DNA of 64,000 nt from Candidatus Kapaibacterium sp. (GTDB lineage: Bacteria > Bacteroidota > Ignavibacteria > Kapaibacteriales > UBA2268), in assembly GCA_041675005.1 (NCBI GenBank), contig JBAYUQ010000006.1:9574-73573 (forward strand). The letters are read 5' to 3'. Below the pieces are notes generated by a model. That model was not told the DNA's origin, ran no database searches, and saw only the letters and a program-made list of their open reading frames with translations. The position numbers and the translations under genes were made by a program. Shown here in pieces: positions 4,453 through 56,144 of the stretch. The first letter of the stretch is position 1, and every line of letters begins with the position of its first letter.

Positions 4453-7400
4453 TTATTTTATTTTATTGAGGTTAAACATATATCTACTTCCCTTTCCTTC
4501 GAGTATCAGATAATAAGTCCCACTAGTCAAATTAGCTAAACTTAGCTGCTGTATAGAGGTAATTATACCTACAGTTCTTAACTCTTGGCCAGTTTGGCTG
4601 ATTAGAGTAGCACTATCTATATTCTGAGCTAACTCAACTGGTATATTGATAGTTACTTCTTCGCCAGCCGGATTCGGATAAATAGATATACCCGATTCAG
4701 ATGCTGATAGAACAGAGCCGATAACAGCGTCTTCTGTAGTGAATGACCATTCTTCCGACCAATCATTTCCAGTCTCACCTTCGAATGCCATAACTCTCCA
4801 ATAGTAAGTCTGTTCCTCTTCAAAATCATATACATCCTTAGAGTTAGTGGTTATGTTCGAATCATTATAGAATAAGTTAGTGAAACTTTCATTTTTAGAT
4901 ATTTGTAAATTGTAAGTTTCGGCACCTGGAGTAGTTTCCCATTTGAACAAGACTGATTTCTTTTCAATATCTATAGACCCATTTGCTGGGGCTAGTAGTG
5001 CAGTTCTAGCAAGACCAGTAGAGAAGTTCCATGGTACAGTCCAAGGGCTTACTGTATCGTTCAGAACAGCTCTTACTCTCCAATAATATGTTTTGTTAGT
5101 TTCGACAGAAGTAAGTTCGAAATTATGATCAGGTAAAGCCGATTGTTCAACAACAAATGGACCTGAGAACTCTGGTTTCAGAGATACTTGTAAATCATAC
5201 TTATACCCTTTTATTTCTGACCAATCTAATAGCACTGGAGCTTGGTGTCCACCACTATTATTAGCTGGGCTAATATGCATAGGTCTTTCTTGACCAGTTT
5301 TAAATGACCAGATTTCTGACCACGGACCTTTTACGTGGTTAGTATCCGTTGCTCTAACTCTCCAATAGTAATTGGCATTTGCCTCTAATTCAGAAAGTGG
5401 TTGTTGTACTGCACCCAGTGTTTGGTTATCTTGAGCTGGAATTGAGAAATCAGCAAAACGTGAAATCTGGATTTGATAATCAACTGCTTCATCTACTTTT
5501 TTCCACGTAAAGAGAACTGCGTCTGGTTGATTAGCAGCATTATTCAAAGGTAAAGTAAGTACAGGTGCAGCAAGTACGGTTCTAAACTTCCATATTTCTG
5601 AAAGTTGTCCTTGGCTACCATCCTCTCCTTCTACCACAGCGGCCCAATAGTAGTGTGTAAGAGGTGTTAATTTCTCATTAACTGCTAGTGTATAAGTAGT
5701 GTCTGTTAAACCAGTTTTAGTTAGCACCACATTAGTCATAGCAGCATCAGTAGCTACTATTAACTTATACTTATCTGCATCTTTTACTGACGACCATAAG
5801 AAAGTTGGAGTATGTGAAACTGAAATAGTATCTTTCACTGGTTCTATAAGTGTAGGCGGACCTATTAATGTAGTAAATTCATTAACTGACGACCAGTTAC
5901 TATATACACCACCTGTTTTGCCTCTAACTCTAAAAAAGTACTTAGTGTTTGGATTCAATTTATAGAATATATCATAGTAAGTGTTCGCTGTGATTATATC
6001 TTCGTAAGAGAAAGTGAAACTCTTGTTAGCAGAGATTTGGAAATTATACAAATCAGCTTTACCCGAAGTACTCCAATCAAACGATAAATCTAATGGTTGA
6101 TTCAAAGATTCATTTATTGGGCTTGCTAACTGAGGCACACCCATCTTGTTTCTGTTATTATACTTATAGAGAAGTGAACCAGAAAACATCAAATCTGCAT
6201 CTGAGTTTACAGCCATTTCGTAAATTCTACCAGTGTGGTAACCAGATTGCAATGAATCCCATTCTACTCCGCCATTTGTAGAGTGGTAAACTCCCCAATG
6301 TTGACTCAAACCAACATATAGTTCATTAGCTGAAGCGACCACAAAAGATGCTACTGATTGGTCAGGTTGTGATTGACCAAAATCACGAGCAGCTATTGGG
6401 ATATCCAATTTACTAAAGCTAGTAGCATTATTCTTAGATACATATAGTCCTTCATAAGTAGCAGCATATAAATTACCATAAGCAAAACTTAATTTACTTA
6501 TTGTTTTATTTAAGCTATATCCAGTGTTACTGAAAGTAGCACCACCATCAGTAGATTTGAATAATTTATTTACCATTTGTGCATCAGGTCTGAATAAATA
6601 GATGTTATTATTAGCATCCGCCTCTAATAGACAACCACTCGATGCGTCATCTGGATAATTTTGTATTCTAGTCCAAGCGGCTCCACCATCAGTTGATTTG
6701 TATAGCTCTTGTCTCACAGTTGGCGGCATTCCTTCGATGAAGAACATAATGATCGAATATACATCGCCATTTGGAGCCACAACCAAATCCATCATTGAGT
6801 CATCATTGTCACCAGGAGTGACTTTAGTCCAAGTATTACCTTTATCTGTAGAGATTACGGCATCATTATTATTTATACCTATCAAATTCCCATTTACGTA
6901 TTTTAATCTATTGACCATACCACCTGGATAGTTTGTAAGCTCAGTCCAATCTGTACCCAAATTTGAGGATTTGTACATTTTATCATTTACATTCAATACA
7001 AAATCAGATCCAGTGTTAACAATAAAACTAGTAACACCATAAGGGTCTAAAGAAACTTTGTCCCAATTTTTCCCTTTATTAGTACTCTTTACTAAACCCC
7101 TATCAAAATCATAGGCAAGTAAAGTACCATTTGAAAGTTGAGTCATATCAACTACACCAAAATTTCTTAGTATAGAAGGTAGCCACTCTGTATATGGTTG
7201 TGCGTTATAGAACCAAATACCATTTTCTCTAGTACCGACTACGGCACCTTCACTAGTATATTCGAAACAAGTGATTCCATTATCTTTTAGAGAGTCTGCT
7301 TCTGGTTGGTATTTGACCCACTGCAAAGCATCATTATTCGACTCCATCAGTCCCTTGTCATTCGTAGCCATTAGTATTATATCACTACTGATAACTGAAA

Positions 7401-8058
7401 TCTGATTTATGAATTTTGTATTATTTGTACCAGAGTTTGCTCTCCTCCAATTATCTCCCTTATCAGTAGAGCGATATACACCGTCTCCATAAGAGCCAGC
7501 TAATAGAGTAGAGTCCATAGTAAGTGCTATAGCAGTTATGTGCATAGACTCTAATACAACATTTTGTCCATTATTATCTTTCGATCTATTCAAAGAAGCC
7601 CAAGTAGTACCAGCATCTTTAGATACGAATAACCCTGAACCATAAGTACCTACGTAGATAGTATTGTCATCGAATCTACTTACATAAATAGACGTAACAT
7701 TCATACTCGAATCAAAAGATAATTTAGTCCATAAATTCCCATCGTTTTTCGAAACATATATACCGTCACCTTGTGTCCCAACATAGACAACACCCTTACT
7801 GTCGAAAACAATATCATTTATATATAGATTATTCAATCCATTGTTCTTAGTTTGGAATGCTTGACCACCGTTCGTGGAAGTGTATATACCATCTCCCCAT
7901 GTCCCGACAAATACCATATCTGACTTATTTGCTTTCAATACATTCAGCCCTTTATAGCCAGGTGCCTTTACTTTTACCACTGTCTCATTCGAATACGAAG
8001 TATAAGTAATTAAACAAACAATCATTAGTAGTAGTAATTTTTTCATGTTTCGTACCAA
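4453..8058 (-). CDS. 1201-aa secreted BNR/Asp-box repeat protein with fibronectin-III-like modules and a T9SS C-terminal sorting domain
   Basis: Repeated S-x-D-x-G-x-T-W/F boxes (STNGGQAF, SKDAGTTW, STDKGDNW, STDGGAAW, STDGGATF, STNGGVEW). Tandem ~90-aa FN3-like units. C-terminal ...ISIYPNPAGEEVTINI...GTYYLILEG... Confidence 0.7.
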   Translation of the reverse strand: MVRNMKKLLLLMIVCLITYTSYSNETVVKVKAPGYKGLNVLKANKSDMVFVGTWGDGIYTSTNGGQAFQTKNNGLNNLYINDIVFDSKGVVYVGTQGDGIYVSKNDGNLWTKLSFDSSMNVTSIYVSRFDDNTIYVGTYGSGLFVSKDAGTTWASLNRSKDNNGQNVVLESMHITAIALTMDSTLLAGSYGDGVYRSTDKGDNWRRANSGTNNTKFINQISVISSDIILMATNDKGLMESNNDALQWVKYQPEADSLKDNGITCFEYTSEGAVVGTRENGIWFYNAQPYTEWLPSILRNFGVVDMTQLSNGTLLAYDFDRGLVKSTNKGKNWDKVSLDPYGVTSFIVNTGSDFVLNVNDKMYKSSNLGTDWTELTNYPGGMVNRLKYVNGNLIGINNNDAVISTDKGNTWTKVTPGDNDDSMMDLVVAPNGDVYSIIMFFIEGMPPTVRQELYKSTDGGAAWTRIQNYPDDASSGCLLEADANNNIYLFRPDAQMVNKLFKSTDGGATFSNTGYSLNKTISKLSFAYGNLYAATYEGLYVSKNNATSFSKLDIPIAARDFGQSQPDQSVASFVVASANELYVGLSQHWGVYHSTNGGVEWDSLQSGYHTGRIYEMAVNSDADLMFSGSLLYKYNNRNKMGVPQLASPINESLNQPLDLSFDWSTSGKADLYNFQISANKSFTFSYEDIITANTYYDIFYKLNPNTKYFFRVRGKTGGVYSNWSSVNEFTTLIGPPTLIEPVKDTISVSHTPTFLWSSVKDADKYKLIVATDAAMTNVVLTKTGLTDTTYTLAVNEKLTPLTHYYWAAVVEGEDGSQGQLSEIWKFRTVLAAPVLTLPLNNAANQPDAVLFTWKKVDEAVDYQIQISRFADFSIPAQDNQTLGAVQQPLSELEANANYYWRVRATDTNHVKGPWSEIWSFKTGQERPMHISPANNSGGHQAPVLLDWSEIKGYKYDLQVSLKPEFSGPFVVEQSALPDHNFELTSVETNKTYYWRVRAVLNDTVSPWTVPWNFSTGLARTALLAPANGSIDIEKKSVLFKWETTPGAETYNLQISKNESFTNLFYNDSNITTNSKDVYDFEEEQTYYWRVMAFEGETGNDWSEEWSFTTEDAVIGSVLSASESGISIYPNPAGEEVTINIPVELAQNIDSATLISQTGQELRTVGIITSIQQLSLANLTSGTYYLILEGKGSRYMFNLNKIK

Positions 8059-11150: not shown

Positions 11151-14100
11151 ATGGATAACAAAAATTTACACCGTTTATTTGCATTATTATCATTTGCTAC
11201 GGCTATGATAGTATTTGGGATGACAGTCCAAGACAGCGTTCCCTTCTGGGATTGCGGTGAATTCTCTGCGGCTGCAATATGGCAGCAAGTACCCCACCCT
11301 CCGGGGGCACCACTTTTCCTAATGATAGGTAAAATGTTCGATATTCTTATCCCATTTGGCGATCCGGGATGGAAAATCAATATGGCTTCTGCTACAAGTA
11401 GTGCATTTGCTGTGTTATTTCTTTATCTAATTACCGTAATGGCGATAAAGAATTTCAGAAAAGAAGCAATTTCTTCTTTTGGTGATGCTTTAGCCGTATA
11501 TGGATCTGCATTCGTTGGAGCAGCAGCATTCACATTCAGTGATACTTTCTGGTTCAACGCTGTGGAATCTGAGGTTTACGCTATGGCCACCCTATTCGTA
11601 TCTATTATCATCTATCTGATGATGAGATGGAACGAAGAGGCAGATAATCCGGGACATGAGCGATTTTTATTGCTTATAGCTTATCTGATAGGGCTTTCTA
11701 CTGGGGTGCATCTACTACCGATATTAGCTATATTCTCTATTGTTTTCTTAGTTTACTTAAGAAAATATAAAACAACGTTTGGTGGTCTGATGATCACTGG
11801 AATATTATCATTAGTAATATTCTTCATCATTTACCCATTCATAGTAAAATGGATACCAGCACTATTAGCAGGTCACTCTCCAGGTAGAAACGAAGTTCAC
11901 CAATATAATATAAACGATAGTAAAGCTTTGTTTATAGTAGCTATACTATTTGTATTTGGTGCGATTGGGCTATTTGTCTGGGCTATGAAAAACAAAAAAG
12001 AAATGATTATGTTGGCTTCTGGTGTAGTTGTACTAGTCCTTTTAGGATACACTACTTACACTCAGATATTACTTAGATCGAATGCTAACCCTCCGATGAA
12101 CGAAAACTCACCAAAAGAATTTGGTGATTTGGCTTCTTACTTGGGGCGTGAACAATACGGCGATGATGCTAGTTGGCCACGTAGAATAAAAACAGAAGAA
12201 CGATTCACAAGAGTTTATTTATCTAAAGATGAAAAAGGTGAATATATATATGGAGATTGGACTCCTCCCTCTAGAGAGAGAGTAGAAACTAGCGATGGTC
12301 AGGCCGTAACTAAACCAGTTTGGAATAATATTAACTTCGGTGGTGAGATGGCTTACCTCTGGAAATACCAAATGGGTCACATGTACTGGCGATATTTCGG
12401 ATGGAACTTTATAGGAAAGTATTCTGATGAACAAGACGCAGGCGTCTCGTTTACAGATAAAACAAACCCTAGAATAGAAGAGTTAAATGACCTGAACGGT
12501 TATGCAAATGAATTCCCAATCCGATTCTTTGCTCTGCCGCTGATATTTGGGCTAATTGGATTCTTCTTCCATTTCAGAGTAGATAGAAAAATGGCAATAT
12601 TACACCTAGTTATATTCCTAATGATGGGACTATTAGCCGCGGTTGCTCAGCAGCAACAAGACCCACAACCAAGAGAAAGAGACTATTTCTATACGGGTTC
12701 ATTTATGATGTGGTGTATGTGGATAGGTATTGGAGTTTACTCACTAATTATAAATTTGAGCAAAAAGAGAGTACAAGCTGGAATAGCAGGTGCAATTGTT
12801 GCAGCTTCTACTATATTGGTGCCAGTTAATATGGCAATCGGTGGTTGGAATACTCACGATAGAACAGGCAATTTCCTTCCTTTCGATTATTCTTATAACC
12901 TCTTGCAATCGGCCGATGAGGGAGCTATTATCTTCACCAATGGTGACAATGATACTTTCCCAGTTTGGTACATTCAAGATGTAATGGGAGTGAGAAGAGA
13001 CGTAAGAATAGTGAATTTATCACTAGGTAATACTCTTTGGTATGTATATCAATTGAAAAATATGCAGCCGTGGGGAGCTGATAAGATTCCACTTACTTTC
13101 CCTGATGAGAAATTATTAATAGATGAGATAGACCCTAATGCTTTAAGCTACGATTTTGGTGAAGCTTTCAATTTAGAAATACCTGTTAAGCGTGAAATAT
13201 TGGCAAAATACACTGATGATGCTGATATCCTTGCTAGAGGAACTTTCAAAGCAATGTTCAAAGGACAAGATTATGGGGAGCAAGGCGGCAAACAGATGTA
13301 CTTATTCAGAGTACAAGACAAGTTGATAAGAGATATACTTGAGCAAATAAAATTCGAAAAGCCAATATATTTCTCGACTACTGTCGGCCCCGATGCTTAT
13401 GCTGGATTGGAAGAGTTCTTCCGTTACGAAGGTATGCTAATGAGAATATGCCCAGTACCTCAGAAAACTGCGGTAGGCGATAAATTGGATATAGACGTGA
13501 TGGCTGAGATATTACTCAACGTAAATAATACTGACGAATATAGTAAAACTCCTAAGAGAGAATTCAAGATGAGAAATCTGAATGACCCTGGAGTTTACTT
13601 TGACCCAGTACATAGACGATTGATGAATAGCTATAGACAACTATACACTATGTTGGCTACATCTTATATATCTATGAGAAACGACAATGAGAAAGCTATA
13701 TCAACTCTTGATTTGATGAATAAAAATATATCTCCGACAGTATTCCCCATGGAATATGATATGCTTTACAGAATGTCTCAGCTATATAGTGATGCTGGAG
13801 CTAAAGATCAAGCCAAGATATACGCCAAATTAGGTGTAGATAGAGCAAACAAGATAATAACAAACGATAATTTAAAATCAGATTTAGTGCAGTACGAGAT
13901 AGGGAACCGCTACTTGGGTCCACATAGATATTCGGCTGAATTATACAAAGTTATGGACGATTATCAAGGTGCTATAGACGTAACTAAAAAGCTGAAAAGC
14001 AAAATCGAAGTGCTCGAAGAGCAGATGCGAGGTCGCCAAGGCTACGAATCTCAATATGAGAGAGTTCGTTCTAACCTGATAGACGCTTTAGTAACAATCG

Positions 14101-14306
14101 ATGAGCTCGAGATAGCTAAACTTGAGCACGAAGGTAAAAAAGCTGAAGCTATGAAGCTATTACAAACGAAAATGGCTAAGTACAATGCTGATAATACTCA
14201 AGTAAGCAATACTTTAGGAGCTTTGTTGAACCGAAGATTAATGGAAATGCAGCAAAAATCGAGTGGTGACACCATAGCAGCACAAAATGCCCCAACTAGC
14301 AATTAA
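11151..14306 (+). CDS. DUF2723-family large membrane protein, putative GT-C/PMT-like glycosyltransferase, with a TPR-like C-terminus
   Basis: N-terminal motif VPFWDCGEFSAAA...HPPGAPLF. At least 10 TM helices followed by a long soluble helical C-terminal region. Confidence 0.6.
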   Translation: MDNKNLHRLFALLSFATAMIVFGMTVQDSVPFWDCGEFSAAAIWQQVPHPPGAPLFLMIGKMFDILIPFGDPGWKINMASATSSAFAVLFLYLITVMAIKNFRKEAISSFGDALAVYGSAFVGAAAFTFSDTFWFNAVESEVYAMATLFVSIIIYLMMRWNEEADNPGHERFLLLIAYLIGLSTGVHLLPILAIFSIVFLVYLRKYKTTFGGLMITGILSLVIFFIIYPFIVKWIPALLAGHSPGRNEVHQYNINDSKALFIVAILFVFGAIGLFVWAMKNKKEMIMLASGVVVLVLLGYTTYTQILLRSNANPPMNENSPKEFGDLASYLGREQYGDDASWPRRIKTEERFTRVYLSKDEKGEYIYGDWTPPSRERVETSDGQAVTKPVWNNINFGGEMAYLWKYQMGHMYWRYFGWNFIGKYSDEQDAGVSFTDKTNPRIEELNDLNGYANEFPIRFFALPLIFGLIGFFFHFRVDRKMAILHLVIFLMMGLLAAVAQQQQDPQPRERDYFYTGSFMMWCMWIGIGVYSLIINLSKKRVQAGIAGAIVAASTILVPVNMAIGGWNTHDRTGNFLPFDYSYNLLQSADEGAIIFTNGDNDTFPVWYIQDVMGVRRDVRIVNLSLGNTLWYVYQLKNMQPWGADKIPLTFPDEKLLIDEIDPNALSYDFGEAFNLEIPVKREILAKYTDDADILARGTFKAMFKGQDYGEQGGKQMYLFRVQDKLIRDILEQIKFEKPIYFSTTVGPDAYAGLEEFFRYEGMLMRICPVPQKTAVGDKLDIDVMAEILLNVNNTDEYSKTPKREFKMRNLNDPGVYFDPVHRRLMNSYRQLYTMLATSYISMRNDNEKAISTLDLMNKNISPTVFPMEYDMLYRMSQLYSDAGAKDQAKIYAKLGVDRANKIITNDNLKSDLVQYEIGNRYLGPHRYSAELYKVMDDYQGAIDVTKKLKSKIEVLEEQMRGRQGYESQYERVRSNLIDALVTIDELEIAKLEHEGKKAEAMKLLQTKMAKYNADNTQVSNTLGALLNRRLMEMQQKSSGDTIAAQNAPTSN

Positions 14307-14332: not shown

Positions 14333-14365
14333 AAGGCGTTTACTTCGGTAAACGCCTTTTTTTAT
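14333..14365 (+). terminator. rho-independent terminator
   Basis: AAGGCGTTTACttcgGTAAACGCCTT followed by TTTTTTT. Confidence 0.7.
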
Positions 14366-14491: not shown

Positions 14492-14731
14492 ATGTTTTGG
14501 ACACCAGAACTAGCAAAAACATTAGAAGATGCACCATTTCCGGCTACCAAAGACGAGCTTTGGGATTACGCTAATAGATCAGGTTGCCCGCAACAAGTAT
14601 TGGACAACATTATCGAATTAGAAGATACCGATGAGTTAATCGAAGGCATGGAAGATTTGTGGTCTGAGTATGAGGATATGATTGAAGAAGATTACTTCTA
14701 TGATGACGACGAAGAAGAACAGTACAAATAG
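14492..14731 (+). CDS. DUF2795-family small protein with an acidic tail
   Basis: WTPELAKTLEDAPFPATKDELWDYA motif, then a poly-acidic C-terminus. Confidence 0.5.
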   Translation: MFWTPELAKTLEDAPFPATKDELWDYANRSGCPQQVLDNIIELEDTDELIEGMEDLWSEYEDMIEEDYFYDDDEEEQYK

Positions 14732-14792: not shown

Positions 14793-17018
14793 ATGCACTT
14801 TATTCCCAATAGACTAATATTATTTGCGATTATAATAATATGCTCATTGACTAATATCAAAGCAGACGAACTAGAGAATAAAGGACTTTATACTAGTAAG
14901 TTTGTTCCTTATGGCTATGAGATAAATCGGCTAGAGTTTATTGGGAATAAAGAATTCACTGATGCCGAGTTGGTAAGTAAAGTAAAAAGCCGCCCTACTA
15001 ATATCGGGATACTCCACTCGCTTATGCTGATGTATTACAGCGAGGGGCAAAAAAATCGTCATACTCCCAAATTGGCTATGGAAACGATAGAAAAGAATAT
15101 TCGTTGGTTCGAAAATGAAAGGCGTGTATTCGACGAGAAAGTAGTATTAGAGGATTTGAAATCATTAGAATCATACTATAAAAACAACGGATACCACCTA
15201 TCACAGATAAGCTACGAAATATTCCCAGACAGCACTACCGAAGAAAATGTATTAGCTTTCTATATAAAAGAAGATGAAAGATATAGAATATCCACAGTTA
15301 CCTATATTGGTCTAGATAGCATAGACCTAGAAGTAAAAAGTAAAATCAAAAATGTACTGACAGATCACACTGGTGACTACTATTCCGAACAAAAAATAGA
15401 GCAAGAATACAACGAGGTAACCGCTACTCTAGAGAATAATGGATTTCTATATATAAAGAGTAGCCGACCGATAATTTACATAAACGACGAAACCAAAACA
15501 GATAGTGTAGTAATAGAATTCATACTAGGTGAAAGAAAGAAGATTGGCAAAATAGAAATAGTAGATGTTCGCAACGATCAACCAGCTGTATCGGAGAATA
15601 TGCGTAGAATGCAGATTGCTTTCAAACCGGGTGATTACTATAGCAAACGAGATGAACTACAATCTCGTATTAACTTCCTCTCGTTGGGAGTATTCGAGAA
15701 TGTCTCAATTAGCTATATCTCCGACTCAACTACAAGCGATTCGATAGTCAACGTAAAGGTTAGTCTTGTTTATAATAACCAACAAGATTGGGAAGTCAGC
15801 CCTTTTGTGAATAGGACTGTTTTCAATGAGACTACGAATGCGGGTATAGAAGCAGGTTACGGGCATAAGAACATATTCGGTGCTGCACAGAAGTTCAGAT
15901 TATATGGCAAAATCTTCGCTCGTGATATAAGTCGATTCATTGGCTCAGGGAGCAGTACAAATGAGTACCAAAACCTGTTGGAATATGAATACCAAGCTGG
16001 TATTCGGTTCGATCAGCCATATATATTCTCACTTTTTAATTGGAGCGTTGGCACGAGTACTAACCCACAATATGCCGTTCGTAATATCCTAAATAACTTC
16101 ACTCTCAACACTTTTTCTTGGCCATTCACATTCCAACTCCGATTACCTTACTATACGATTATCAATAGTGTCTATATAGATTTAAGCTTTGAAAGTGAGA
16201 AACCGTCGGGATTAGAGAATATATTGAACCAAGATACTCTGACTAGTGATATAGCACAAGCATTGATTATTTACTCTAGTTTGCAAGAATATGATAAATT
16301 TATCACTCTTGCCACTATGAGTTTTAGGGCAGTAGGGGACAAAAGAGACAACCCGATAAACCCAACCAAGGGTTATTATCTGAATACTTCAGTTGAGTTC
16401 CCAATAGCTAATGTACTATCAAATTATATAAGAACTCAGGTGAAAATCTATAATTACTTTAGTTTATCAAGCCAATTAACAACAGCATTCAAAATCAGTG
16501 CTGGCCACATATTCTTAGATTTCAATAGTAATTATTATGTACCATTTGATAGACAGTTTTTTGCAGGTGGAGCAAATTCAGTTCGGGGTTGGACATCAAG
16601 AAAACTTAGATACCACCCGAAGGGGGATTCTACTTTTAAACAAAATGATTTGTACGGCTTCCTAGAAAACTTTGTTGGCTCTACTAGTTTGATTGAATCT
16701 TCAATAGAGCTACGATACAAATTCAAACGTCCAGAGTACTTTAGCGAGTTTTTAGCAGACCAAATAGAAAGTCTAGGACTTGTTGCCTTTGCCGACGTAG
16801 GGAATTCGTATGATTGGCTAGTAAACGACGATAGATCTGATACTAAAACTAATAACTTTTTCAGTACGTTAGCCGTTTCTATAGGTGCTGGGATAAGATA
16901 TTTCACACCGGTTGGACCATTGAGATTAGATTTCGCAACACCTGTGTTTGATCCTAACGGAGATGACAAACCTTTTTCCAATATACTAATTCACATTGGT
17001 TTAGGTCATACATTCTAA
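14793..17018 (+). CDS. Omp85-family (BamA/TamA-like) outer-membrane protein
   Basis: Signal peptide. POTRA-like segment. VRGW loop-6 motif. C-terminal beta-signature ending ...IGLGHTF. Confidence 0.55.
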   Translation: MHFIPNRLILFAIIIICSLTNIKADELENKGLYTSKFVPYGYEINRLEFIGNKEFTDAELVSKVKSRPTNIGILHSLMLMYYSEGQKNRHTPKLAMETIEKNIRWFENERRVFDEKVVLEDLKSLESYYKNNGYHLSQISYEIFPDSTTEENVLAFYIKEDERYRISTVTYIGLDSIDLEVKSKIKNVLTDHTGDYYSEQKIEQEYNEVTATLENNGFLYIKSSRPIIYINDETKTDSVVIEFILGERKKIGKIEIVDVRNDQPAVSENMRRMQIAFKPGDYYSKRDELQSRINFLSLGVFENVSISYISDSTTSDSIVNVKVSLVYNNQQDWEVSPFVNRTVFNETTNAGIEAGYGHKNIFGAAQKFRLYGKIFARDISRFIGSGSSTNEYQNLLEYEYQAGIRFDQPYIFSLFNWSVGTSTNPQYAVRNILNNFTLNTFSWPFTFQLRLPYYTIINSVYIDLSFESEKPSGLENILNQDTLTSDIAQALIIYSSLQEYDKFITLATMSFRAVGDKRDNPINPTKGYYLNTSVEFPIANVLSNYIRTQVKIYNYFSLSSQLTTAFKISAGHIFLDFNSNYYVPFDRQFFAGGANSVRGWTSRKLRYHPKGDSTFKQNDLYGFLENFVGSTSLIESSIELRYKFKRPEYFSEFLADQIESLGLVAFADVGNSYDWLVNDDRSDTKTNNFFSTLAVSIGAGIRYFTPVGPLRLDFATPVFDPNGDDKPFSNILIHIGLGHTF

Positions 17019-17037
17019 TAAATTATAAGGAGTTAAT

Positions 17038-17940
17038 ATGTTCAAGTATATACTATTTCTATTAGTAGCAACGATATCAGTCAATGCTCAAGACACTATA
17101 GAAAAAGATAACTCAACTGCCAAAGATTCTTCAAAATACCAAGAATGGGATTTTAACTTTTGGAGTATGGATTCATACAGCGATCTGGATAGACCAACGA
17201 TTGAGCTTGAATACGGAATGAACGAAGCATTCTATAACAAGGATGCATTCGGCACTGAGTTCAATCCAAATAACAGGGTTATAGGTAAAGTTGGATTTGC
17301 AAACTATGGTGAGACAGTAGCTGGTAGTGGTCTATTAAAATACTCCTTCAACTCACTTTTTGCGGGGCAATCACTTGGGGATATAGATGCAATAGGTGAA
17401 AATCTGAGCTTGAACAGTAAAGTACTTTCATTTGGAATGATTTCTAGCAATGGCTATGGCTATACAATCAGTGATAATTTTCAGATAATACTAACTCACG
17501 GTACAGGATTAACTTGGAATTCGCTAGAGTTCACTAATTCGAGTGGAATAGTAGATACAAACCAAATAGATATGATCAAAGTAATGGAAGATGGTATCCG
17601 TTTCGGTGAGACCTTCGAGTCAGGAATAAAAATAAGATTAGTAGAGAACATAGGGATAACAGCTACTTATAGTGAGAATTTGATAATGCCTCGCTTCCTG
17701 TTTTGGCATTGGTCATTAGGAAAACTAATAGAGGGAACAACTCAAGGTATAGCTAGCTATTTCGTAGATAGAGTGAAAACTACTTCACCGACTCTAGTAC
17801 CTATACTCTATTTCGTTGTTAAAAATGGAATATCTTACGGATTTCATAGGATTCGCGAGAATAATATGAATTGGCCATCGAATACTGCCCCTCCCCTATT
17901 CCAAAGAAATTTCAACATAGGTGTTAGCTTTATTTTCTAA
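17038..17940 (+). CDS. secreted, probably outer-membrane, hypothetical protein; paralog A
   Basis: Signal peptide. C-terminal NFNIGVSFIF. Similar to the next gene in its C-terminal region (KNGISYGFHR...NWPS versus KTGISYLIYEGR...YWPF). Confidence 0.45.
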   Translation: MFKYILFLLVATISVNAQDTIEKDNSTAKDSSKYQEWDFNFWSMDSYSDLDRPTIELEYGMNEAFYNKDAFGTEFNPNNRVIGKVGFANYGETVAGSGLLKYSFNSLFAGQSLGDIDAIGENLSLNSKVLSFGMISSNGYGYTISDNFQIILTHGTGLTWNSLEFTNSSGIVDTNQIDMIKVMEDGIRFGETFESGIKIRLVENIGITATYSENLIMPRFLFWHWSLGKLIEGTTQGIASYFVDRVKTTSPTLVPILYFVVKNGISYGFHRIRENNMNWPSNTAPPLFQRNFNIGVSFIF

Positions 17941-18821
17941 TGAATATTAGCCCCATCAAATTAATTTTAACCCTTTCTTTCTTCTTTCTAGTGCAGACTA
18001 ATCTCTGGTCTCAGGAGCAAGAAAGCATTGGCGATATTATCTCTCGCTATTTCAACACTGAAGAAAATGTGAATATTCCTCTACTGGAGCTCAGCTACGG
18101 ACCAGAATGGATGACATTTTACTCGGATTTTGGTAGCTCATTTGAAGAAAATTATTCAACAGAAGTTCAATACGGATTCTTCAGATATGACAAAAGGTTA
18201 TCAAGAAATGGGCTATTGTACTTCAGTTCCGAACGAGCATTTTTCGGGAATTCATCATCTCGCTTTAAGCCCTCATCCGTCAGTGACCACACTATCAAAA
18301 CAGAGATGTATCGCTACGGTGGTACATATTACAATGGTTTCGGATTAGGTGAAGAAAAAGGGAACAAATTTCTATTTTCACATAGTAGCTCCATAATGCA
18401 GGTGCAATCAGATATAGAGAATTTCACTTATAGTGAAAACAACAATCGATTGCTCTACGAATTCGAGACGGAAACAAACTTCGGTATGGCATATACTTCA
18501 GGGCTAATGTATGTATTTGGCGAGGGAGTAACTAGCTTGGAAATTAAATACCACCACAATGTAATATGGTCAGATTTCCAATTCGTAGAGTGGAGTGGCT
18601 CTTGGGTAATAGAGAACCTATTGCAAAGGACACCCGATTTATTTCACGAGTATTTTATATCGAAGTTCGGTGCATACTACCCTATTATCTATCATATATA
18701 CAAGACAGGAATTTCATATCTAATCTATGAAGGACGTAGCCGAAACAGCTATTGGCCATTCAAAGGTAGCGAAGTGTTAACCCAAAGAGGAGTCAAACTA
18801 GGAGTCAAATTCGCCCTCTAA
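17940..18821 (+). CDS. secreted, probably outer-membrane, hypothetical protein; paralog B
   Basis: Signal peptide. TAATG stop/start overlap with the upstream paralog. C-terminal GVKLGVKFAL. Confidence 0.45.
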   Translation: MNISPIKLILTLSFFFLVQTNLWSQEQESIGDIISRYFNTEENVNIPLLELSYGPEWMTFYSDFGSSFEENYSTEVQYGFFRYDKRLSRNGLLYFSSERAFFGNSSSRFKPSSVSDHTIKTEMYRYGGTYYNGFGLGEEKGNKFLFSHSSSIMQVQSDIENFTYSENNNRLLYEFETETNFGMAYTSGLMYVFGEGVTSLEIKYHHNVIWSDFQFVEWSGSWVIENLLQRTPDLFHEYFISKFGAYYPIIYHIYKTGISYLIYEGRSRNSYWPFKGSEVLTQRGVKLGVKFAL

Positions 18822-19592
18822 TCGGAATCTATCTATAAACTCACTAACTACTTCATCTTTGGAATCTTTCAGCTGTTGAACATTCCCCTCGAATCTGACT
18901 TTTCCATCGTGAAGCATAGACACCTTATCAGCAACCCGAAATACGGAAAACATATCGTGTGTTATGACAATAGAAGTAACACCAGTTGATTTTCCGATTT
19001 CTTTAACTAACTCGTCTATCTGCTCCGATGTAACTGGATCAAGTCCAGTAGTTGGCTCATCGTAGAATATATACTTAGGGTCACCTACTAATGCACGAGC
19101 AACACCTACTCTTTTACGCATACCACCCGATAGATCAGATGGTTTTTTCGTTTTCAATATTTCCCACTCCTTAATGAAATTAGCCGTCTCTCGCTCATTT
19201 ATAGGAGGAAGTAATCCTACCGAAGATAGTACTTTTACTGCGGTCTCATCTAAAGTTTTTGCGTCCCTTTCGCCGTGTTCGTATAGACCTATTATTATAT
19301 TCTCATATACATTATAGGAATCGAAAAGAGCAGCCCCTTGGAAAACGAATCCCATACTTTTGCGAATCTCGAATAATTCTTTGTAGCTTAAAGTCTCTAT
19401 TTCTTTATCGTCTACGAATATTTCGCCTTTATCTGGCTTTAATAATCCCACAATATGCTTAAGAAGTACACTTTTTCCAGAGCCAGATTTACCTATAATA
19501 CAATGAGTTGAGCCAATCTCAACATCTATGTTTACACCCGTAAGTACGTGTTTATCACCAAAGCTTTTGTGTAGATTTTTAATAGAAATCAT
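18798..19592 (-). CDS. ABC transporter ATP-binding protein, MlaF-like
   Basis: Walker A GKSGSGKS, signature LSGGMRKRVGVARAL, Walker B IFYDEPTTGLD, H-loop ITHD. Confidence 0.75.
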   Translation of the reverse strand: MISIKNLHKSFGDKHVLTGVNIDVEIGSTHCIIGKSGSGKSVLLKHIVGLLKPDKGEIFVDDKEIETLSYKELFEIRKSMGFVFQGAALFDSYNVYENIIIGLYEHGERDAKTLDETAVKVLSSVGLLPPINERETANFIKEWEILKTKKPSDLSGGMRKRVGVARALVGDPKYIFYDEPTTGLDPVTSEQIDELVKEIGKSTGVTSIVITHDMFSVFRVADKVSMLHDGKVRFEGNVQQLKDSKDEVVSEFIDRFRLEGEFDS

Positions 19593-19716: not shown

Positions 19717-20151
19717 ATGAGTTTCAATTTTACAAATGAAGACATCGAAAGAATCTCTGAGACATTGGGGGTTAATCACAAAGGTACTTCAGATACTTGG
19801 ACATGGACACTGAAAAACAGTGAAACTAACCAGTCCGTTGTATTTACAATTTACAATAAAACTCAGATTTCTCCTCAGAAAGATGAGACAGGTGTATTAG
19901 TTTCTGTTCAAACTAAGCACGGCTATTTCGAGCTACATGGGCTAACAGGATTTTTGCTTTTTGAGCCAGACGAAGTTATATTCGTCCGTGCCGAAGGGGA
20001 AAGCGTCTCTTGCCTAGTAATAGGTAGCAATAGCAGTTGTTCGCTATTCTCAAATATTGATAAAGCAATATTGAAATCGAGCATAACTGAGCTAGATCCC
20101 GCGATCTTACTTGCGGCTATGCAGCTTTCCTTAGCAGAATCAATTCTATAA
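19717..20151 (+). CDS. hypothetical protein
   Basis: ORF only; no motif recognised. Confidence 0.35.
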   Translation: MSFNFTNEDIERISETLGVNHKGTSDTWTWTLKNSETNQSVVFTIYNKTQISPQKDETGVLVSVQTKHGYFELHGLTGFLLFEPDEVIFVRAEGESVSCLVIGSNSSCSLFSNIDKAILKSSITELDPAILLAAMQLSLAESIL

Positions 20152-25414: not shown

Positions 25415-28078
25415 TTACTCAATAAATAATTTATTCACCTCCATCTTATTCCCTTCCATTATTTGTAGAAAATATATTCCACTTGCAATCCCAGTTAATT
25501 CCCAATTTCTTTCAATTGTCTCATCGTCTTTATTGATATTGTACTCAGCTACAGTATGACCTGTATAATTAGTAATTCTCAGATACAAGTTTCCTCTGTA
25601 TCCGCCGAGGCTGTTTAAATATATGGATTTGCCATTATTCGAGATATCAGTTTGATTGTTAAAGAATAAAACTTGCCTTATATCCTGAGCACAAATCTCT
25701 TCAGTTATTAGCGAACCATCTATTATATCGAACACATAATTAGAAACAGTATCTTGAATTAATATTTCAGTTGAATCAATATCGGTCAGCAATACTGTGC
25801 CGAATAAACTTCCAATTTGATTCCGTCCATTACTAATTGCAGTTCCTTCATAACTAATTTTGATTTTTTGATTATCATTTACCACAGATATATCTATTAG
25901 TTTGACTCCTTCTACTCTATCTACTAAGTACTTGCTATTTGAGAGGACAAATGATGCCTCAAATTTGAAATCATCTGTTGCTTCTATGCAAGTTGTTGTT
26001 AAAAATATCGGAATCTCAAAATTCCTTCTTCCAATTACTGTTCTCAAATGTGGTACTTCAAGAGTGAATATAATACTTTCTATAATTATTTTTAATGGGA
26101 TAGAGATTTTTCTCTTACATTCGGAATCTATGTATATATCTAGCGTGTCCATTAATATACCTACGTTCAATCGGTCGAAATCTATAAGTATATCCCTATA
26201 AAACTCTCCATTTGGGTATGAGTCAATTATAAATGGTTTATTCTTAATTGACATTTTATTCCCTAACCGCAGCGAAAGACTATCTATTCTCAATGACTTA
26301 TTAGACTTGATTGGGAAATCAATACTATATGACTGCTCTATTCCTCGGCATATTCTGATCTCATATTCTTCAATCTGTGGGTAATCGAAAATTGCTTGTT
26401 CTATTATATAGCTAGCTATTCCTTCGCAGCCACCTTCATCCAATGCTTCTAGTTCCAACAAACCCAAATCAGCTATGACAACGGTGTCTTGGCTACCAAT
26501 TAGAATTCTATTTGTAGTTCCAGATTTAGTAAAATACCACTTGTACTCTTTGTATTTTTCAGTGGAGGTGAAAGTCATATCTTCAAGTGGGGTAAGGCAT
26601 AAATCTAATTTATCAGGAAATACTTTTACTATTTCTGGTGTGATTTTCTCGATTATTCTAATTTCAAATGTATCATTGAATTGTTTGTAACAACTCTGGA
26701 AATGGTAGAAATAATATCCAGCATCTGCAGCGCTTATATTCTCGAACACTAGGTCATTACTATAATCTCGAGACCCATCTGCCTTCACCCAACTATGTAC
26801 GCCGCAAGGGTCTTCTGCACCTTTGATTGTAACACTTGAATTTATACAGTATTGCTGTATATCATCAGGTCGATTATAAACAGCAGGGGATTGTGGCGTT
26901 GCAAGAAAGTTCGATGGAATCTTAGGTATATAAAGAACGTTGATAATATTATTAGTTACACCTATTCCCAAATGTTGATATCCAACATTTGGACTTTCAG
27001 AATTAGGACAATTGATTACTCCGAGAAAGGTACTATCTTTTCTACCAGTATAACTATGCAAATAACTTATATAAATTCTATTGTTTGGGGCTAATTGAAA
27101 ATCTCTTAATAGACAATCGACACATGTTGCTTCCTGAATCCAAACGATTTTTCTTGAATTAAGTACACTATTTTTATTAGTATAATCTTTCAAATCAAAT
27201 TGATGTATAATGTAGTTGTCGTGTCCACTTTGTGCATAGAGTTTACTCCCGTTCTGTGAAAATTCAAACATAGTTCTTATATTATAATCTGATTCTTTAG
27301 TAAAATCAATCTTATAGTTTTGTATTATATTTCCGTTACTATTATCAAAAGAATAAAATACAAAATTGCTTCCGTAATAATTTAAGATTAATTTATCGCC
27401 TTGGGGAGAAAACTTAAACGCAATACCACTAAAAACTTTATTATTATAGTCCATATCTATATCTTGAAACCGAGTATTTACAAATGCTTCTGATGAGAAT
27501 AACTGAGTAATATGCAATTCTTCTGGATTTTTAGCCATTGAAGCTATAAAGTAACTATTACCATCGTTACTTAAAGTTGCAGCTAAAGGTAAACTTGATA
27601 TTGATGTTGCTATCGAGGTTTCTGGTATGATAGTATTAAAAGGTGAGTTATAGTCTATTTTGATATAGTTTAATGTTCCATAATTGTCGGTTTCTTTGGT
27701 TGAAATATAAACGAAATAACACAATCTTTTGGAATAGAAAGGTAAGACTATTGACTCTATATTGGTATTTACTTCTTGATTATCAAATAAATGTTCGAAT
27801 ATTATTAGACCTGTGCTTTCACGAATCACAATTTTGTTACTATATATATCAAAACTTAATTGTATTTCGCCTTTATCATCTGTAAAAATATCTGAGTGCC
27901 TATAATTTCTATCTTTTTTATAATTATCGATATCTATTGTATATTGGCATTCCTCTTCACCGAATTTTATTTGCTCACGGCTGTCAAGCTGCCATGTTGA
28001 AAATGGTTTATTAGAATACGAAAATGATTGAGCAAGTATGAAAATAAGAATAAATATAAATTTCATAAATAACCTCAA
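25415..28078 (-). CDS. large secreted hypothetical protein with a T9SS C-terminal sorting domain
   Basis: Signal peptide. C-terminal ...GIYFLQIMEGNKMEVNKLFIE. Confidence 0.5.
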   Translation of the reverse strand: MRLFMKFIFILIFILAQSFSYSNKPFSTWQLDSREQIKFGEEECQYTIDIDNYKKDRNYRHSDIFTDDKGEIQLSFDIYSNKIVIRESTGLIIFEHLFDNQEVNTNIESIVLPFYSKRLCYFVYISTKETDNYGTLNYIKIDYNSPFNTIIPETSIATSISSLPLAATLSNDGNSYFIASMAKNPEELHITQLFSSEAFVNTRFQDIDMDYNNKVFSGIAFKFSPQGDKLILNYYGSNFVFYSFDNSNGNIIQNYKIDFTKESDYNIRTMFEFSQNGSKLYAQSGHDNYIIHQFDLKDYTNKNSVLNSRKIVWIQEATCVDCLLRDFQLAPNNRIYISYLHSYTGRKDSTFLGVINCPNSESPNVGYQHLGIGVTNNIINVLYIPKIPSNFLATPQSPAVYNRPDDIQQYCINSSVTIKGAEDPCGVHSWVKADGSRDYSNDLVFENISAADAGYYFYHFQSCYKQFNDTFEIRIIEKITPEIVKVFPDKLDLCLTPLEDMTFTSTEKYKEYKWYFTKSGTTNRILIGSQDTVVIADLGLLELEALDEGGCEGIASYIIEQAIFDYPQIEEYEIRICRGIEQSYSIDFPIKSNKSLRIDSLSLRLGNKMSIKNKPFIIDSYPNGEFYRDILIDFDRLNVGILMDTLDIYIDSECKRKISIPLKIIIESIIFTLEVPHLRTVIGRRNFEIPIFLTTTCIEATDDFKFEASFVLSNSKYLVDRVEGVKLIDISVVNDNQKIKISYEGTAISNGRNQIGSLFGTVLLTDIDSTEILIQDTVSNYVFDIIDGSLITEEICAQDIRQVLFFNNQTDISNNGKSIYLNSLGGYRGNLYLRITNYTGHTVAEYNINKDDETIERNWELTGIASGIYFLQIMEGNKMEVNKLFIE

Positions 28079-28982: not shown

Positions 28983-29252
28983 ATGAATTTCGAATTCACG
29001 AAAAATGCTTTAGACGACTACAACTATTGGCTGACGAATGATGCAGCCACAGCACAAAGAATAAAGGATTTGCTCAAAGCAATTAAACAAGACCCATTCA
29101 AAGGAATAGGTAAGCCAGAGCCACTAAAATATGATTTGAAAGGCTATTGGTCGAGGCGAATAACAAGGGAACATCGTTTAGTCTATACTATAACTGGTAC
29201 AAAGGGAGAAGACCAGAAGTGCATTATCATTCAGTGTCGGTTTCACTATTGA
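28983..29252 (+). CDS. yoeB: YoeB/Txe-family toxin (ribosome-dependent mRNA interferase)
   Basis: LKGYWSRRITREHRLVY motif; 89 aa. Confidence 0.8.
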   Translation: MNFEFTKNALDDYNYWLTNDAATAQRIKDLLKAIKQDPFKGIGKPEPLKYDLKGYWSRRITREHRLVYTITGTKGEDQKCIIIQCRFHY

Positions 29253-29883
29253 TATCATCGAATAATTCCTCGAACGAATTACAAACCTCAACGAATGGAC
29301 TATTATCTTTGTGGTTGGGACACCATCGGTTTATATAGTGATATTTACCATCCTTGTAACCCTCCAATATCCACTCCGTACCATCCATACCTAAATATTT
29401 GATGTGTGTCGGCTGAGTCCAAAATTCGAATCTCTCAATCCTTTGAATTAGGTTATCCCACTCTTCTCTTGGAAGTTTTTTTGTTTGATTTATTATTAAC
29501 TTTCCAGCGTGATATCCACCATAGCCGTCAGTTAGCTTTTTGGTAATAGTAACTATTGAATCAGTTTTTACGATTCTATATGTGAATGGATTACCCCAAG
29601 TTCCTATGTTAGTATATCTATATACTTCGATACTCTTCTTTTGGTTGAATAATACTGGCTCTTTTAGGGAGTATAGGTGTTTAGAATACCACTCATTGGA
29701 AAATGTATCTAGCTTGTGTTCGACTTTTTTAAAATTCGAGCCCATGGATAGTGGGAAATAGAAATCACCAGAATCGGGCAATGCAAATGGATAATCCAAC
29801 TCCAATCCCGAGAAGTCGTTGATTGATGAGCAACCAATAAATATAAATAGGAGGGTTAATAGCGTTCTAGTTATAACATTCAT
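29227..29883 (-). CDS. lipoprotein, hypothetical
   Basis: Lipobox FIGCSS. Overlaps the yoeB 3' end convergently by 26 nt. Confidence 0.4.
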   Translation of the reverse strand: MNVITRTLLTLLFIFIGCSSINDFSGLELDYPFALPDSGDFYFPLSMGSNFKKVEHKLDTFSNEWYSKHLYSLKEPVLFNQKKSIEVYRYTNIGTWGNPFTYRIVKTDSIVTITKKLTDGYGGYHAGKLIINQTKKLPREEWDNLIQRIERFEFWTQPTHIKYLGMDGTEWILEGYKDGKYHYINRWCPNHKDNSPFVEVCNSFEELFDDINSETDTE

Positions 29884-29925
29884 TTACTAATCCAATATTA
29901 AAGAAGTTGAAGTACTCTATGTTTT

Positions 29926-30879
29926 TTAGTCTATCAGAAGTTCTTTAAACTCTAATCTTCTATTTTCAATAATTTTATTTTTACTATGTGAGAATTGTGA
30001 TACTATTTCGTAATTAGTTTCTATCAATAGTGGGATACCAGATGATTCTGAATAAATGATTCTAATTTCTTTGTTTACAGTTAACTCTATACTTTCCAAA
30101 AGTTCCTCAAGTTCCTCCTCGTCATTTACAAAGAGACTAAACACTTGAGACATCCATTTTTTCAATTCATTATTATCTATTTTCGTGGTTTTGATTAGTT
30201 CAATTTTTCCTTTTTCCGCATCTTCAGCTTTTTCAATTATTGAAACGGCAGGTATTACAAGTCCAAACTGAAAGACAAACAAATCTTCTGTAAATTCTTT
30301 CCCTATGTCACTGTCAATTAGTCCCATTCCTAAATGTAGATTTTTAGCATCAGTTAAATAATAATCTACAAAGCCACTAGACGAGGTCACAAAATCCAAT
30401 ATTTTCTTTGACATAACTCTTAACATTGTATTTTTCAATGTTTTTTCATCTAATGTCTTCGAATCAATTAAATCACTTGCCTTTTTTCGGATTATCACAG
30501 AGAGTGTGTCCCAACCTAAAACTCCGATAATACTACCGTTAATATCAGTTTCATAACATATATCTTCTAAGTCCAAATCTGATGCTAAATCTATTGCATC
30601 ATCACTTTTAGAATTAGTATTTGACATTTCAGCTTTCTTAAACATCATTTTGTATTTATCATCATATTTGCCGTCAACAATAAAATAGCTATAGTTGGTG
30701 TTAGAGTCTATACTTTGAATATCATCGTCTTCAATATCCTTTCTATTATTTTTAAGATAATATACATAAGTATGACCAAGCTTTATAGTTGGTTTTATAA
30801 CTAAATCTTCATTACTCATACTTTTGTAAGTAGTAAATGAATTGAATACTAAAACTGTTATTAATGTAAATAAATATCT
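29926..30879 (-). CDS. secreted hypothetical protein
   Basis: ORF extends to 30945, but a probable GTG start at about 30879 yields a signal peptide (V/MRYLFTLITVLVFNSFT). Confidence 0.35.
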   Translation of the reverse strand, partial: RYLFTLITVLVFNSFTTYKSMSNEDLVIKPTIKLGHTYVYYLKNNRKDIEDDDIQSIDSNTNYSYFIVDGKYDDKYKMMFKKAEMSNTNSKSDDAIDLASDLDLEDICYETDINGSIIGVLGWDTLSVIIRKKASDLIDSKTLDEKTLKNTMLRVMSKKILDFVTSSSGFVDYYLTDAKNLHLGMGLIDSDIGKEFTEDLFVFQFGLVIPAVSIIEKAEDAEKGKIELIKTTKIDNNELKKWMSQVFSLFVNDEEELEELLESIELTVNKEIRIIYSESSGIPLLIETNYEIVSQFSHSKNKIIENRRLEFKELLID

Positions 30880-30992
30880 CACATAAATATCCGTATAGAT
30901 TGAACCTGTTAAATTCCTCTGGACTCTCGCCGAGTACTGCGCCACCTAATAATCTAAAATATTAAAAACGGAGTATATTTGCAAATTTTCTC

Positions 30993-31814
30993 CTACACCC
31001 TCTCTATTTTGAAATGATGTACCTTGTGCTTCTGGTCTTTTAGGCGGATACCAGCTGTGCCGTCTGGCAATATCACTATGTTAGCACCTACTGTCATAGT
31101 AATCGTCTCGAATTTGGGATGCTCGTAAACCTTTGCTTCGAACTCCTCTGCGCTCTCTCCGAATACAGCCCCTTCCTTATCTATACCCAGTTTTCCTCTC
31201 AGATTATAACCGAAGTATTTCATTTCTTCTACTGGCTGTAAAGCTGAAGGGTAAAGTGTCTCACCCTCTTTTGGTTCATTTGGGAATACTATCTCTAACA
31301 TAGGTGGTAATTCCAGCGTGTTACCGTTCACATCTACTGTCAGTGGCTCTACGTTGATGAAGTTGGTCAAGATACCGGCTACTGCATTGAAAGAGTACAT
31401 AAGCGAGCTAAAAACTGTGCCGTTATATTCCAAATTCACACCTGATTTGATGCGAGGCAAAAAATCAGCGAACGAGTTATTCCACTCATCGAAATGATTT
31501 CCATGCCATATACCAGTATCCAGCATGTCTATCTCGTCCATCTCTTGTGGGCAATCACTCACCTTACCAAGTGTTTTTATCAAGCTATTTTTTGGTTCTA
31601 ATATTTTGTCCAGTATTACTGGTACATTACTATCTTGTAGTATCCCGAAATAGATCATATTCACATCTATCTTGCCTTCACCATCATATAACACTAGCGA
31701 GTCTTTGAGTATAGGTAATCCCTTGTAAGAAAAATTTTCCTCTGCTATGAATAGCTGTGGTTTGCCTTCTTCTATTCCACTTGCTTTGCGAATTGCTTTT
31801 CTTATTTCTATCAT
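30993..31814 (-). CDS. hypothetical protein (cytoplasmic?)
   Basis: ORF only. It is the first gene of an apparent three-gene minus-strand operon. Confidence 0.35.
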   Translation of the reverse strand: MIEIRKAIRKASGIEEGKPQLFIAEENFSYKGLPILKDSLVLYDGEGKIDVNMIYFGILQDSNVPVILDKILEPKNSLIKTLGKVSDCPQEMDEIDMLDTGIWHGNHFDEWNNSFADFLPRIKSGVNLEYNGTVFSSLMYSFNAVAGILTNFINVEPLTVDVNGNTLELPPMLEIVFPNEPKEGETLYPSALQPVEEMKYFGYNLRGKLGIDKEGAVFGESAEEFEAKVYEHPKFETITMTVGANIVILPDGTAGIRLKDQKHKVHHFKIERV

Positions 31815-42341: not shown

Positions 42342-42351
42342 CGGGATATAA

Positions 42352-43032
42352 ATGATTAAACATATAGTAGGAAATATCTTCACAACCAAAAAGCAAACTA
42401 TAGTAAATACTGTAAATTGTGTTGGAGTAATGGGTGCAGGGATTGCGCTAGAATTTAGACTTAGATACCCTGACATGTATCAAAAGTATGTTCAATTATG
42501 CAGCCAGAATTTGATAGATATAGGAAAACTATGGATATACAAAACTGAGAAAAAAAGAATATTAAATTTTCCAACTAAAAAGCATTGGAAAGCTCCTACA
42601 AAAGAGATTTATTTGCATAAAGGGTTAGAAAAGTTCTCAATGACATATAAAGAAAAAGGAATTACTTCAATAGCTTTTCCGCTTTTAGGAGCAAGTAATG
42701 GAGGGTTATCTAAAGAAAATTCTTTGTCAATTATGAAAGATTATCTATCTAAATGTGACATCGATATTGAAATATACGAGTATAGTCCTTTGGTTTATGA
42801 TGACCTTTTCTTGAACTTTAAAGATATATGGAATTCCAAATCACTTCATGAGCTATCTAATGAATCAGGTATATCTTTAAAGTATATTGAACGTATAAAT
42901 GCTGGCTTAGATTTAGAAAATATTAGAACATTAAGTCAATTAGCTAGTATTAAAGGAATTGGGTTTAAAACACTTGAGAAATCTTTTTATTACGTTAACA
43001 ATTCAAGTAAGCAAAACACACTCAATTTTTAA
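42352..43032 (+). CDS. darG: DarG-like macrodomain antitoxin; short form with a C-terminal HhH-like tail
   Basis: Macrodomain signature GNIFTT..QTIVNTVNCVGVMGAGIALEF. Immediately downstream of darT. C-terminal IKGIGFKTLEK. Confidence 0.75.
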   Translation: MIKHIVGNIFTTKKQTIVNTVNCVGVMGAGIALEFRLRYPDMYQKYVQLCSQNLIDIGKLWIYKTEKKRILNFPTKKHWKAPTKEIYLHKGLEKFSMTYKEKGITSIAFPLLGASNGGLSKENSLSIMKDYLSKCDIDIEIYEYSPLVYDDLFLNFKDIWNSKSLHELSNESGISLKYIERINAGLDLENIRTLSQLASIKGIGFKTLEKSFYYVNNSSKQNTLNF

Positions 43033-56128: not shown

Positions 56129-56144
56129 TATGTTCCCCCATATA

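Follow-up and report, generated by a model that had tools for sequence, protein, structure and literature searches.

We annotated a 64-kb window (the window: the whole stretch of DNA analysed here) of a Kapaibacterium contig, taking a six-frame list of open reading frames (ORFs) as the base for gene coordinates, and focused on a locus in which a DUF2795 gene and an Omp85-family gene are followed by two tandem paralogs, here called A and B, and by a convergent ABC ATPase gene (Table 1). An initial annotation of this DNA had described the Omp85 gene, the two paralogs and the ATPase gene, and the ORF list places all four exactly where that annotation had mapped them. The earlier map omitted the DUF2795 gene, which lies directly upstream of the Omp85 gene. 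As had also been pointed out, the Omp85 gene is not followed by a Skp/OmpH gene; downstream of it lie A and B, neither of which has an OmpH/Skp match in Pfam.

The junctions between the + strand genes support their organization as an operon. The Omp85 and A genes are separated by 19 nucleotides (nt), which in the raw sequence contain an AAGGAG ribosome-binding site, and the TAATG stop/start overlap reported for the two paralog genes is seen in the raw sequence as a 1-nt overlap at the A/B junction (TTCTAATG). Ahead of the DUF2795 gene, an intrinsic terminator-like hairpin would set the 5' limit of the unit, and no other terminator-like site was found on the + strand between 14359 and 18821. 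Because the only terminator lies ahead of the DUF2795 gene and none lies inside, DUF2795, Omp85, A and B probably constitute a single transcription unit. The same strong terminator sets the block apart from the preceding gene (window 11151-14306), which encodes a 1051-amino-acid (aa) TMEM260-like (DUF2723-type) putative protein O-mannosyltransferase and is syntenic with the Omp85 block throughout the clade. At the opposite end, B and the ATPase gene overlap at their 3' ends by the 24 nt initially described, and the next ORF upstream of the ATPase gene (19717-20151) lies on the opposite strand. By this geometry the ATPase gene appears to be monocistronic.

Table 1. Coordinates of the genes and other features discussed in the text, in the window and in two related loci (L029, L036)
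Feature	Sequence	Position	Strand	Description
Terminator-like hairpin	window	14333..14358	+	11-bp stem and T-run, 3' of the TMEM260-like gene; intrinsic type
DUF2795 gene	window	14492..14731	+	79 aa, acidic, without signal peptide; Pfam PF11387 3.9e-13
Omp85-family gene	window	14793..17018	+	741 aa; Pfam Omp85 3.2e-38, POTRA 1.5e-14
Paralog A	window	17038..17940	+	300 aa; signal peptide, predicted 8-stranded barrel, helical hairpin (residues 222-273) in predicted loop 4
Paralog B	window	17940..18821	+	293 aa; divergent copy of A's family, C-terminus ...VKFAL
3'-3' convergent overlap of B and ATPase genes	window	18798..18821	both strands	24 nt
Orphan ABC ATPase, MlaF-like	window	18798..19592	-	264 aa; Pfam ABC_tran 4.7e-29; convergent with B
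Type IX secretion C-terminal sorting domain (Por_Secre_tail) protein	window	4453-8058	-	
Por_Secre_tail protein	window	25415-28078	-	
Por_Secre_tail protein	window	32055-34661	+	
Por_Secre_tail protein	window	44985-45968	-	
Por_Secre_tail protein	window	46701-47729	+	
Por_Secre_tail protein	window	48102-50006	-	
Por_Secre_tail protein	window	63045-63995	-	
CHASE2 and sigma-54-activator gene, example	L029	5191-7647		
CHASE2 and sigma-54-activator gene, example	L036	4775-7222		

The A and B proteins are paralogous, as initially proposed: a single BLASTP comparison shows 25% of residues to be identical across 252 aa (E=2e-19). Their similarity had been placed in the C-terminal regions, whereas it spans nearly the whole mature protein, and B, which scores 254.8 bits against the family profile, aligns through every secondary-structure element of A. 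Judged by eye, both proteins begin with a hydrophobic, signal-like segment, in agreement with the signal peptides previously assigned to them; of the aromatic C-termini claimed alongside, that of A holds, with the protein ending in F (...VSFIF), but B ends in Leu. The same terminal L, together with an F at position -3, is shared by B and all its orthologues. No third copy of the family was found in the window.

An AlphaFold2 model of A, computed on a 30-sequence alignment, was confident (pLDDT 82.7, pTM 0.77) and comprises a signal helix plus disordered linker (residues 16-47) ahead of eight long strands. The connections between these strands are alternately short (turns of 6, 2 and 3 residues) and long (loops of 11, 13, 21 and 70 residues), the classic pattern of an outer-membrane barrel, and hydrophobicity, averaged over the family, alternates along the strands. 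A is thus modelled as an 8-stranded outer-membrane barrel of the OmpA/OmpX/NspA/PagL type, with PagL, NspA, OprF, OmpA and OmpW scoring nearly alike against it, and B would be expected to adopt the same fold.

The last loop of the model holds two helices (residues 222-249 and 251-273). Together with the ELRKxxMNWPF-type motif that follows, this hairpin (A residues 217-286) occupies exactly 70 residues, with no indels, in 48 of 48 aligned members, and the region is the most conserved of the family (0.58-0.63, compared to 0.39 for strands 1-5). By the topology rule of such barrels, the hairpin would be situated in extracellular loop 4. The external loops of small barrels usually vary more than any other part, and because conservation of this kind is unusual there, the 70-residue region appears to mark a functional signature of the family. 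If the model is right, a rigid, highly conserved hairpin at this site is the hallmark of the family, from which both family curation and structural work could profit.

Existing family libraries do not cover these proteins. Neither A nor B has a Pfam or NCBIfam match at E<=1, save one irrelevant match at 0.09, and neither reaches the gathering threshold of OMP_b-brl (PF13505). Ten distant family members matched no Pfam family either; two of them gave sub-threshold OMP_b-brl scores (17.5-19.9 vs 28.7 bits). Profile scans covering the OmpA, porin and FadL families as well as PorP/SprF, proposed in the initial annotation as a check on the two paralogs, were run and returned no matches, and a search of the PDB with the family-alignment profile yielded a chance match only (E=0.086). 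A PagL-like hydrolase (lipid A deacylase) was ruled out, since a search of the family alignments for the His-Ser-Glu site of PagL revealed no invariant or 90%-conserved column that holds a His or Ser.

An exhaustive profile search over 1.84 billion representatives (50% identity clusters) retrieved 560 clusters of the family at E<=1e-3, of which 353 also pass E<=1e-30, and the best 150 listed clusters are mostly ~300 aa long. Relatives recovered by word-indexed searches were of Kapaibacteria type only and were all annotated as 'hypothetical protein'. In addition, we scanned a genome collection with the A-type subset of the alignment, a search that did not sample B-type members, and inspected the best 80 of the 238 relatives. 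All 80 come from Ignavibacteriota/Kapaibacteria-type metagenome-assembled genomes (MAGs). Every one of these loci (80/80) has just one copy of the family gene within +-8 kb, and in none of them was a homologue of the window Omp85 found within the same distance. Its commonest neighbours are an upstream gene encoding a CHASE2 and sigma-54-activator protein (39/80), hslU/hslV and a convergent metallophosphoesterase gene. These sequence searches suggest a previously undescribed family that is largely restricted to Ignavibacteriota. If the model of A is right, they define an unannotated outer-membrane family of ~560 clusters at 50% identity, which neither Pfam nor NCBIfam represents by a model.

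The 39 Ignavibacteriota loci share a common arrangement, in which the family gene lies directly 3' of, and on the same strand as, the 815-aa CHASE2 and sigma-54-activator gene, with hslVU further upstream. Control of the family gene by sigma-54 was considered and rejected: a TGGCAC-N5-TTGC-type motif was present upstream in only 1/80 loci, and none lies near the window operon. In a neighbour-joining tree, B falls with a minority 'B-type' branch at ~30% identity. Both of the B-type members that we looked up are solo, one overlapping lgt and the other lying beside chemotaxis genes. At L093 (3670-5356), the B-type gene and the 3' end of lgt (prolipoprotein diacylglyceryl transferase) share 11 nt, an overlap suggestive of co-transcription with this lipoprotein-maturation gene.

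The Omp85 protein carries a barrel domain (PF01103) that spans residues 360-741 and appears to be of the 16-strand type, POTRA matches (PF07244) in three stretches, and the loop-6 motif GGANSVRGW, of which its homologues keep S[VI]RGW. This combination of barrel domain, N-terminal POTRA repeats and loop-6 motif places it by sequence in the Omp85 superfamily. Its best NCBIfam match is BamA (TIGR03303; 171.7 bits vs a cutoff of 297.15), with an alignment that starts at model position 151, and the second best is TamL (NF052279; 152.2 bits vs a cutoff of 400). BamA chains are also the best sequence matches in the PDB, with BamA residues 206-458 aligning to residues 105-370 of the query (POTRA 3-5 region). 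Because the BamA model aligns only from position 151 and the PDB chains align through POTRA 3-5, the protein is predicted to possess three POTRA domains and not five. A three-POTRA Omp85 has the architecture of TamA/TamL, and we classify the protein, on its predicted domains, as TamA-like but atypical. Its earlier description as a BamA/TamA-like Omp85 with a VRGW motif is accordingly sound with respect to domains and motif but not to full family membership, as its scores lie under the BamA and TamL cutoffs and also under that of TamA (625).

In Flavobacterium johnsoniae, both TamL and TamA have three POTRA domains and an Omp85 barrel, and TamL carries a lipoprotein signal peptide whose lipidated cysteine is conserved (PMC12045153). 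A TamL-type lipoprotein identity appears unsupported for the window protein, because its Cys17 follows I-I-I in a non-canonical lipobox, with Ile in the preceding position instead of Gly/Ala/Ser; the homologue P0207 has Ser at the Cys17 position, and AxA-type sites (IKA/D, NYA/Q, LNA/Q) occur 6-8 residues later. A TamB/AsmA-like gene was not detected by Pfam among the window ORFs of at least 130 aa, several of which have no Pfam match of any kind, and tamL and tamB are frequently unlinked. The identical protein at NCBI is entered as 'BamA/TamA family outer membrane protein [Candidatus Kapaibacterium sp.]'. In that record (P0199, 723 aa) the start is annotated 18 codons downstream, which drops the signal peptide and is likely a start-codon misannotation in the public entry.

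Homologues of the window Omp85 are 72-100% identical within its clade, after which identity drops to 34, 33 and 29%, suggestive of a divergent subfamily whose close members are confined to one clade. A DUF2795 gene precedes the Omp85 gene in L001-L003 and L096 and also in the 29-34% identical orthologues (L087-L090). In the two orthologues from outside the clade with retrieved loci (34% and 29% identity), DUF2795 is found upstream and no member of the A/B family downstream. Since these orthologues keep DUF2795 and not A/B, the conserved pair appears to be DUF2795-Omp85, to which A and B would have been joined only in this clade. No functional literature on DUF2795 was found, and the analysis thus flags a three-POTRA Omp85 subfamily with a conserved DUF2795 partner, neither of which has been studied so far.

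Within the clade, the gene order is TMEM260-like, DUF2795, Omp85, A, B, ATPase (on the - strand, with the 24-nt overlap), a 144-aa ORF, ybeY and DUF494. The full nine-gene block is present in L001-L003 and L096, and matching parts occur on two short contigs, L095 and that of P0032, while the identity of A across clade loci is only 50-59%. The overlap between B and the ATPase gene is also 24 nt long in L095 and L096; in L001 (9754-9777) it is nearly identical in sequence although B there is only ~60% identical, and the C-termini LGVKF[AP]L and RFRLEGEFDS, each followed by the stop, are fixed in the window and L001. Close relatives therefore do keep the order that the initial annotation had asked to see conserved, but no deeper than background synteny: because all nine genes are syntenic, conservation of the Omp85-A-B-ATPase triad does not exceed that of the genes around it. 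The notion of a conserved triad is not upheld, given that the adjacency is seen only in one Kapaibacteria clade, itself syntenic over nine genes, and that the family gene is solo in the 80 other loci. The position of A and B behind the Omp85 gene is most likely, on the gene orders compared, a lineage-specific arrangement and not an ancient conserved module. What survives of the suggested uncharacterised outer-membrane assembly or export module is an Omp85 gene with two coupled genes for secreted, barrel-type paralogs that fall outside the family libraries.

For the ATPase, the best NCBIfam match is MlaF (NF008809; 173.3 bits vs a cutoff of 441), aligned over its full length, with the ECF, PhnC and PstB ATPase families scoring close behind. 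Consistent with the initial description of a lone MlaF-like ATPase, MlaE (PF02405) and MlaD (PF02470) had no Pfam match in any ORF of at least 130 aa in the window. The protein is most likely an orphan, MlaF-like ATPase whose gene is separate from the operon. An ortholog with 52% identity is found co-directionally and directly 3' of the family gene in L029 (9000-9731) and L030 (8987-9718), two related Ignavibacteria MAGs of one lineage, where the two genes, convergent in the window, thus adjoin in a second arrangement, and these are the only loci (2/80, one lineage) with any ABC ATPase gene within 8 kb of the family gene.

On balance, we judge it probable that the locus is a clade-specific, four-gene Kapaibacteria operon of DUF2795, a three-POTRA Omp85, A and B, in which A and B are small barrels of an undescribed Ignavibacteriota family. 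The two proteins are most likely ordinary small barrels inserted by an Omp85 machine, which in this clade are co-transcribed with a TamA-like Omp85. They would carry Sec signal peptides, be exported by Sec and, as other small barrels, be inserted into the outer membrane via their C-terminal strand, and the conserved hairpin would then be presented to the outside of the cell as a module for interactions. The tight translational coupling of their genes suggests that A and B would be made in equal amounts and perhaps act as an A-B pair. Their relation to the adjacent Omp85 would be at most that of client or partner.

Several points weigh against this interpretation. The fold of B is read from its homology to A. 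In the model, the hairpin may project outward, cap the barrel or pack on it, and conservation as strong as that observed could mean a buried or plugging element and not a surface module. The DUF2795-Omp85-A-B order persists down to 50% identity of A, and the split between A and B may be older than the clade, as B groups with B-type members elsewhere; for both reasons a functional tie to the Omp85 is possible. Finally, the adjacency of family gene and ATPase gene in L029 and L030 hints at a link between the two, which we treat as a coincidence in view of the weakness of the evidence.

In a rival reading, A and B would be accessory subunits dedicated to the three-POTRA Omp85, with or without DUF2795, and together with it would form a specialised assembly or export machine in the manner of BamG, a transmembrane subunit bound to BamA in the BAM complex of Flavobacterium johnsoniae (PMC12611786). 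Such a role would fit the tight operon structure and translational coupling, the order kept in every examined clade member down to 50% identity, and the divergent, clade-restricted nature of the Omp85, and there is a precedent in a related phylum for an outer-membrane protein as a BAM subunit (PMC12611786). However, the 80 other loci lack an Omp85 homologue within 8 kb of the family gene, B-type relatives are likewise solo, and the 29-34% identical Omp85 orthologues keep DUF2795 and not A/B. The nine-gene synteny of the clade also means that adjacency adds little weight, and the BamG barrel is a 14-stranded FadL-type barrel and not an 8-stranded one. We consider such accessory subunits, proposed by analogy with BamG, unlikely. 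A more elaborate arrangement, in which DUF2795, Omp85, A and B would form a Kapaibacteria-specific machine whose two 8-stranded barrels dock on the Omp85 barrel as transmembrane subunits and whose conserved surface hairpins form an extracellular cap, would resemble in miniature the BamG/BamH canopy of the Bacteroidota BAM, and appears more doubtful still.

A role of a different kind had been suggested in the initial annotation, namely that A and B are PorP/SprF-like outer-membrane partners of type IX secretion. Although the window holds many proteins with type IX secretion C-terminal domains and the size of A and B (~300 aa) is comparable to that of PorP/SprF, no match to TIGR03519 or PF11751 was obtained at E<=1 in NCBIfam or Pfam, and profile scans of the 10 distant family members were equally negative. 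In addition, A models as an 8-stranded barrel of the OmpA/OmpX/PagL type, and no type IX secretion gene recurs as a neighbour across the 80 loci, such that we regard the PorP/SprF assignment as very improbable. Taken together, the present evidence reveals no new conserved secretion or assembly system. What is new is a fold variant and an unannotated family, the biology of which is not yet surprising.

The rest of the window contains further genes of interest. Seven proteins carry a Por_Secre_tail domain (Table 1), from which we conclude that the organism makes heavy use of type IX secretion. A gene for DarT (ssDNA thymidine ADP-ribosyltransferase, 1.7e-45) followed by a macrodomain gene (41370-43032) looks like a DarT-DarG toxin-antitoxin pair. 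None of three successive ORFs on the - strand (218, 339 and 273 aa; 29227-31814) matches Pfam, and a homologue of GPP34 (Golgi phosphoprotein 3 family, 2.1e-33) is encoded in this bacterial genome at 52582-53262. On the - strand at 54389-56696, rpoN (sigma-54) adjoins a DUF3109 gene. The rpoN-DUF3109 pair recurs in L029 and L030, upstream there of both hslVU and the barrel-family gene, so that the ancestral neighbourhood appears to have been rearranged in this genome.

In comparison with known systems, A shares with the small 8-stranded barrels (the OmpA N-domain, OmpX/Ail, NspA, OmpW, PagL and the OprF N-domain) the predicted eight antiparallel strands, short periplasmic turns and long external loops, and both A and B appear to have the signal peptide and the hydrophobic or aromatic C-terminal strand of that group. 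At the sequence level the resemblance is slight, with identities of only 8-16% and nothing significant from sequence or profile comparisons, and A and B have neither the C-terminal peptidoglycan-binding domain of OmpA nor the catalytic residues of PagL. The ATPase aligns with MlaF over the full length but scores far under the cutoff, has an insertion of ~15-20 residues relative to its L029 ortholog, and is not accompanied by mlaE or mlaD among window ORFs of at least 130 aa. BamG, a transmembrane protein of the outer membrane and the partner of an Omp85 within the same superphylum, is a conceptual precedent for A and B as accessory proteins, but it is a 14-stranded FadL-family barrel that is not encoded beside bamA, and it showed no homology to either paralog. 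BamA has the VRGW loop-6 motif in common with the window Omp85, which is predicted to lack the equivalents of POTRA 1-2 and does not have the typical skp/ompH neighbourhood downstream. The closest architectural counterparts are TamA and TamL, whose three POTRA domains and Omp85 barrel the window protein appears to share; it differs from them in the non-conserved cysteine of its signal peptide and in having a DUF2795 gene as its conserved partner instead.

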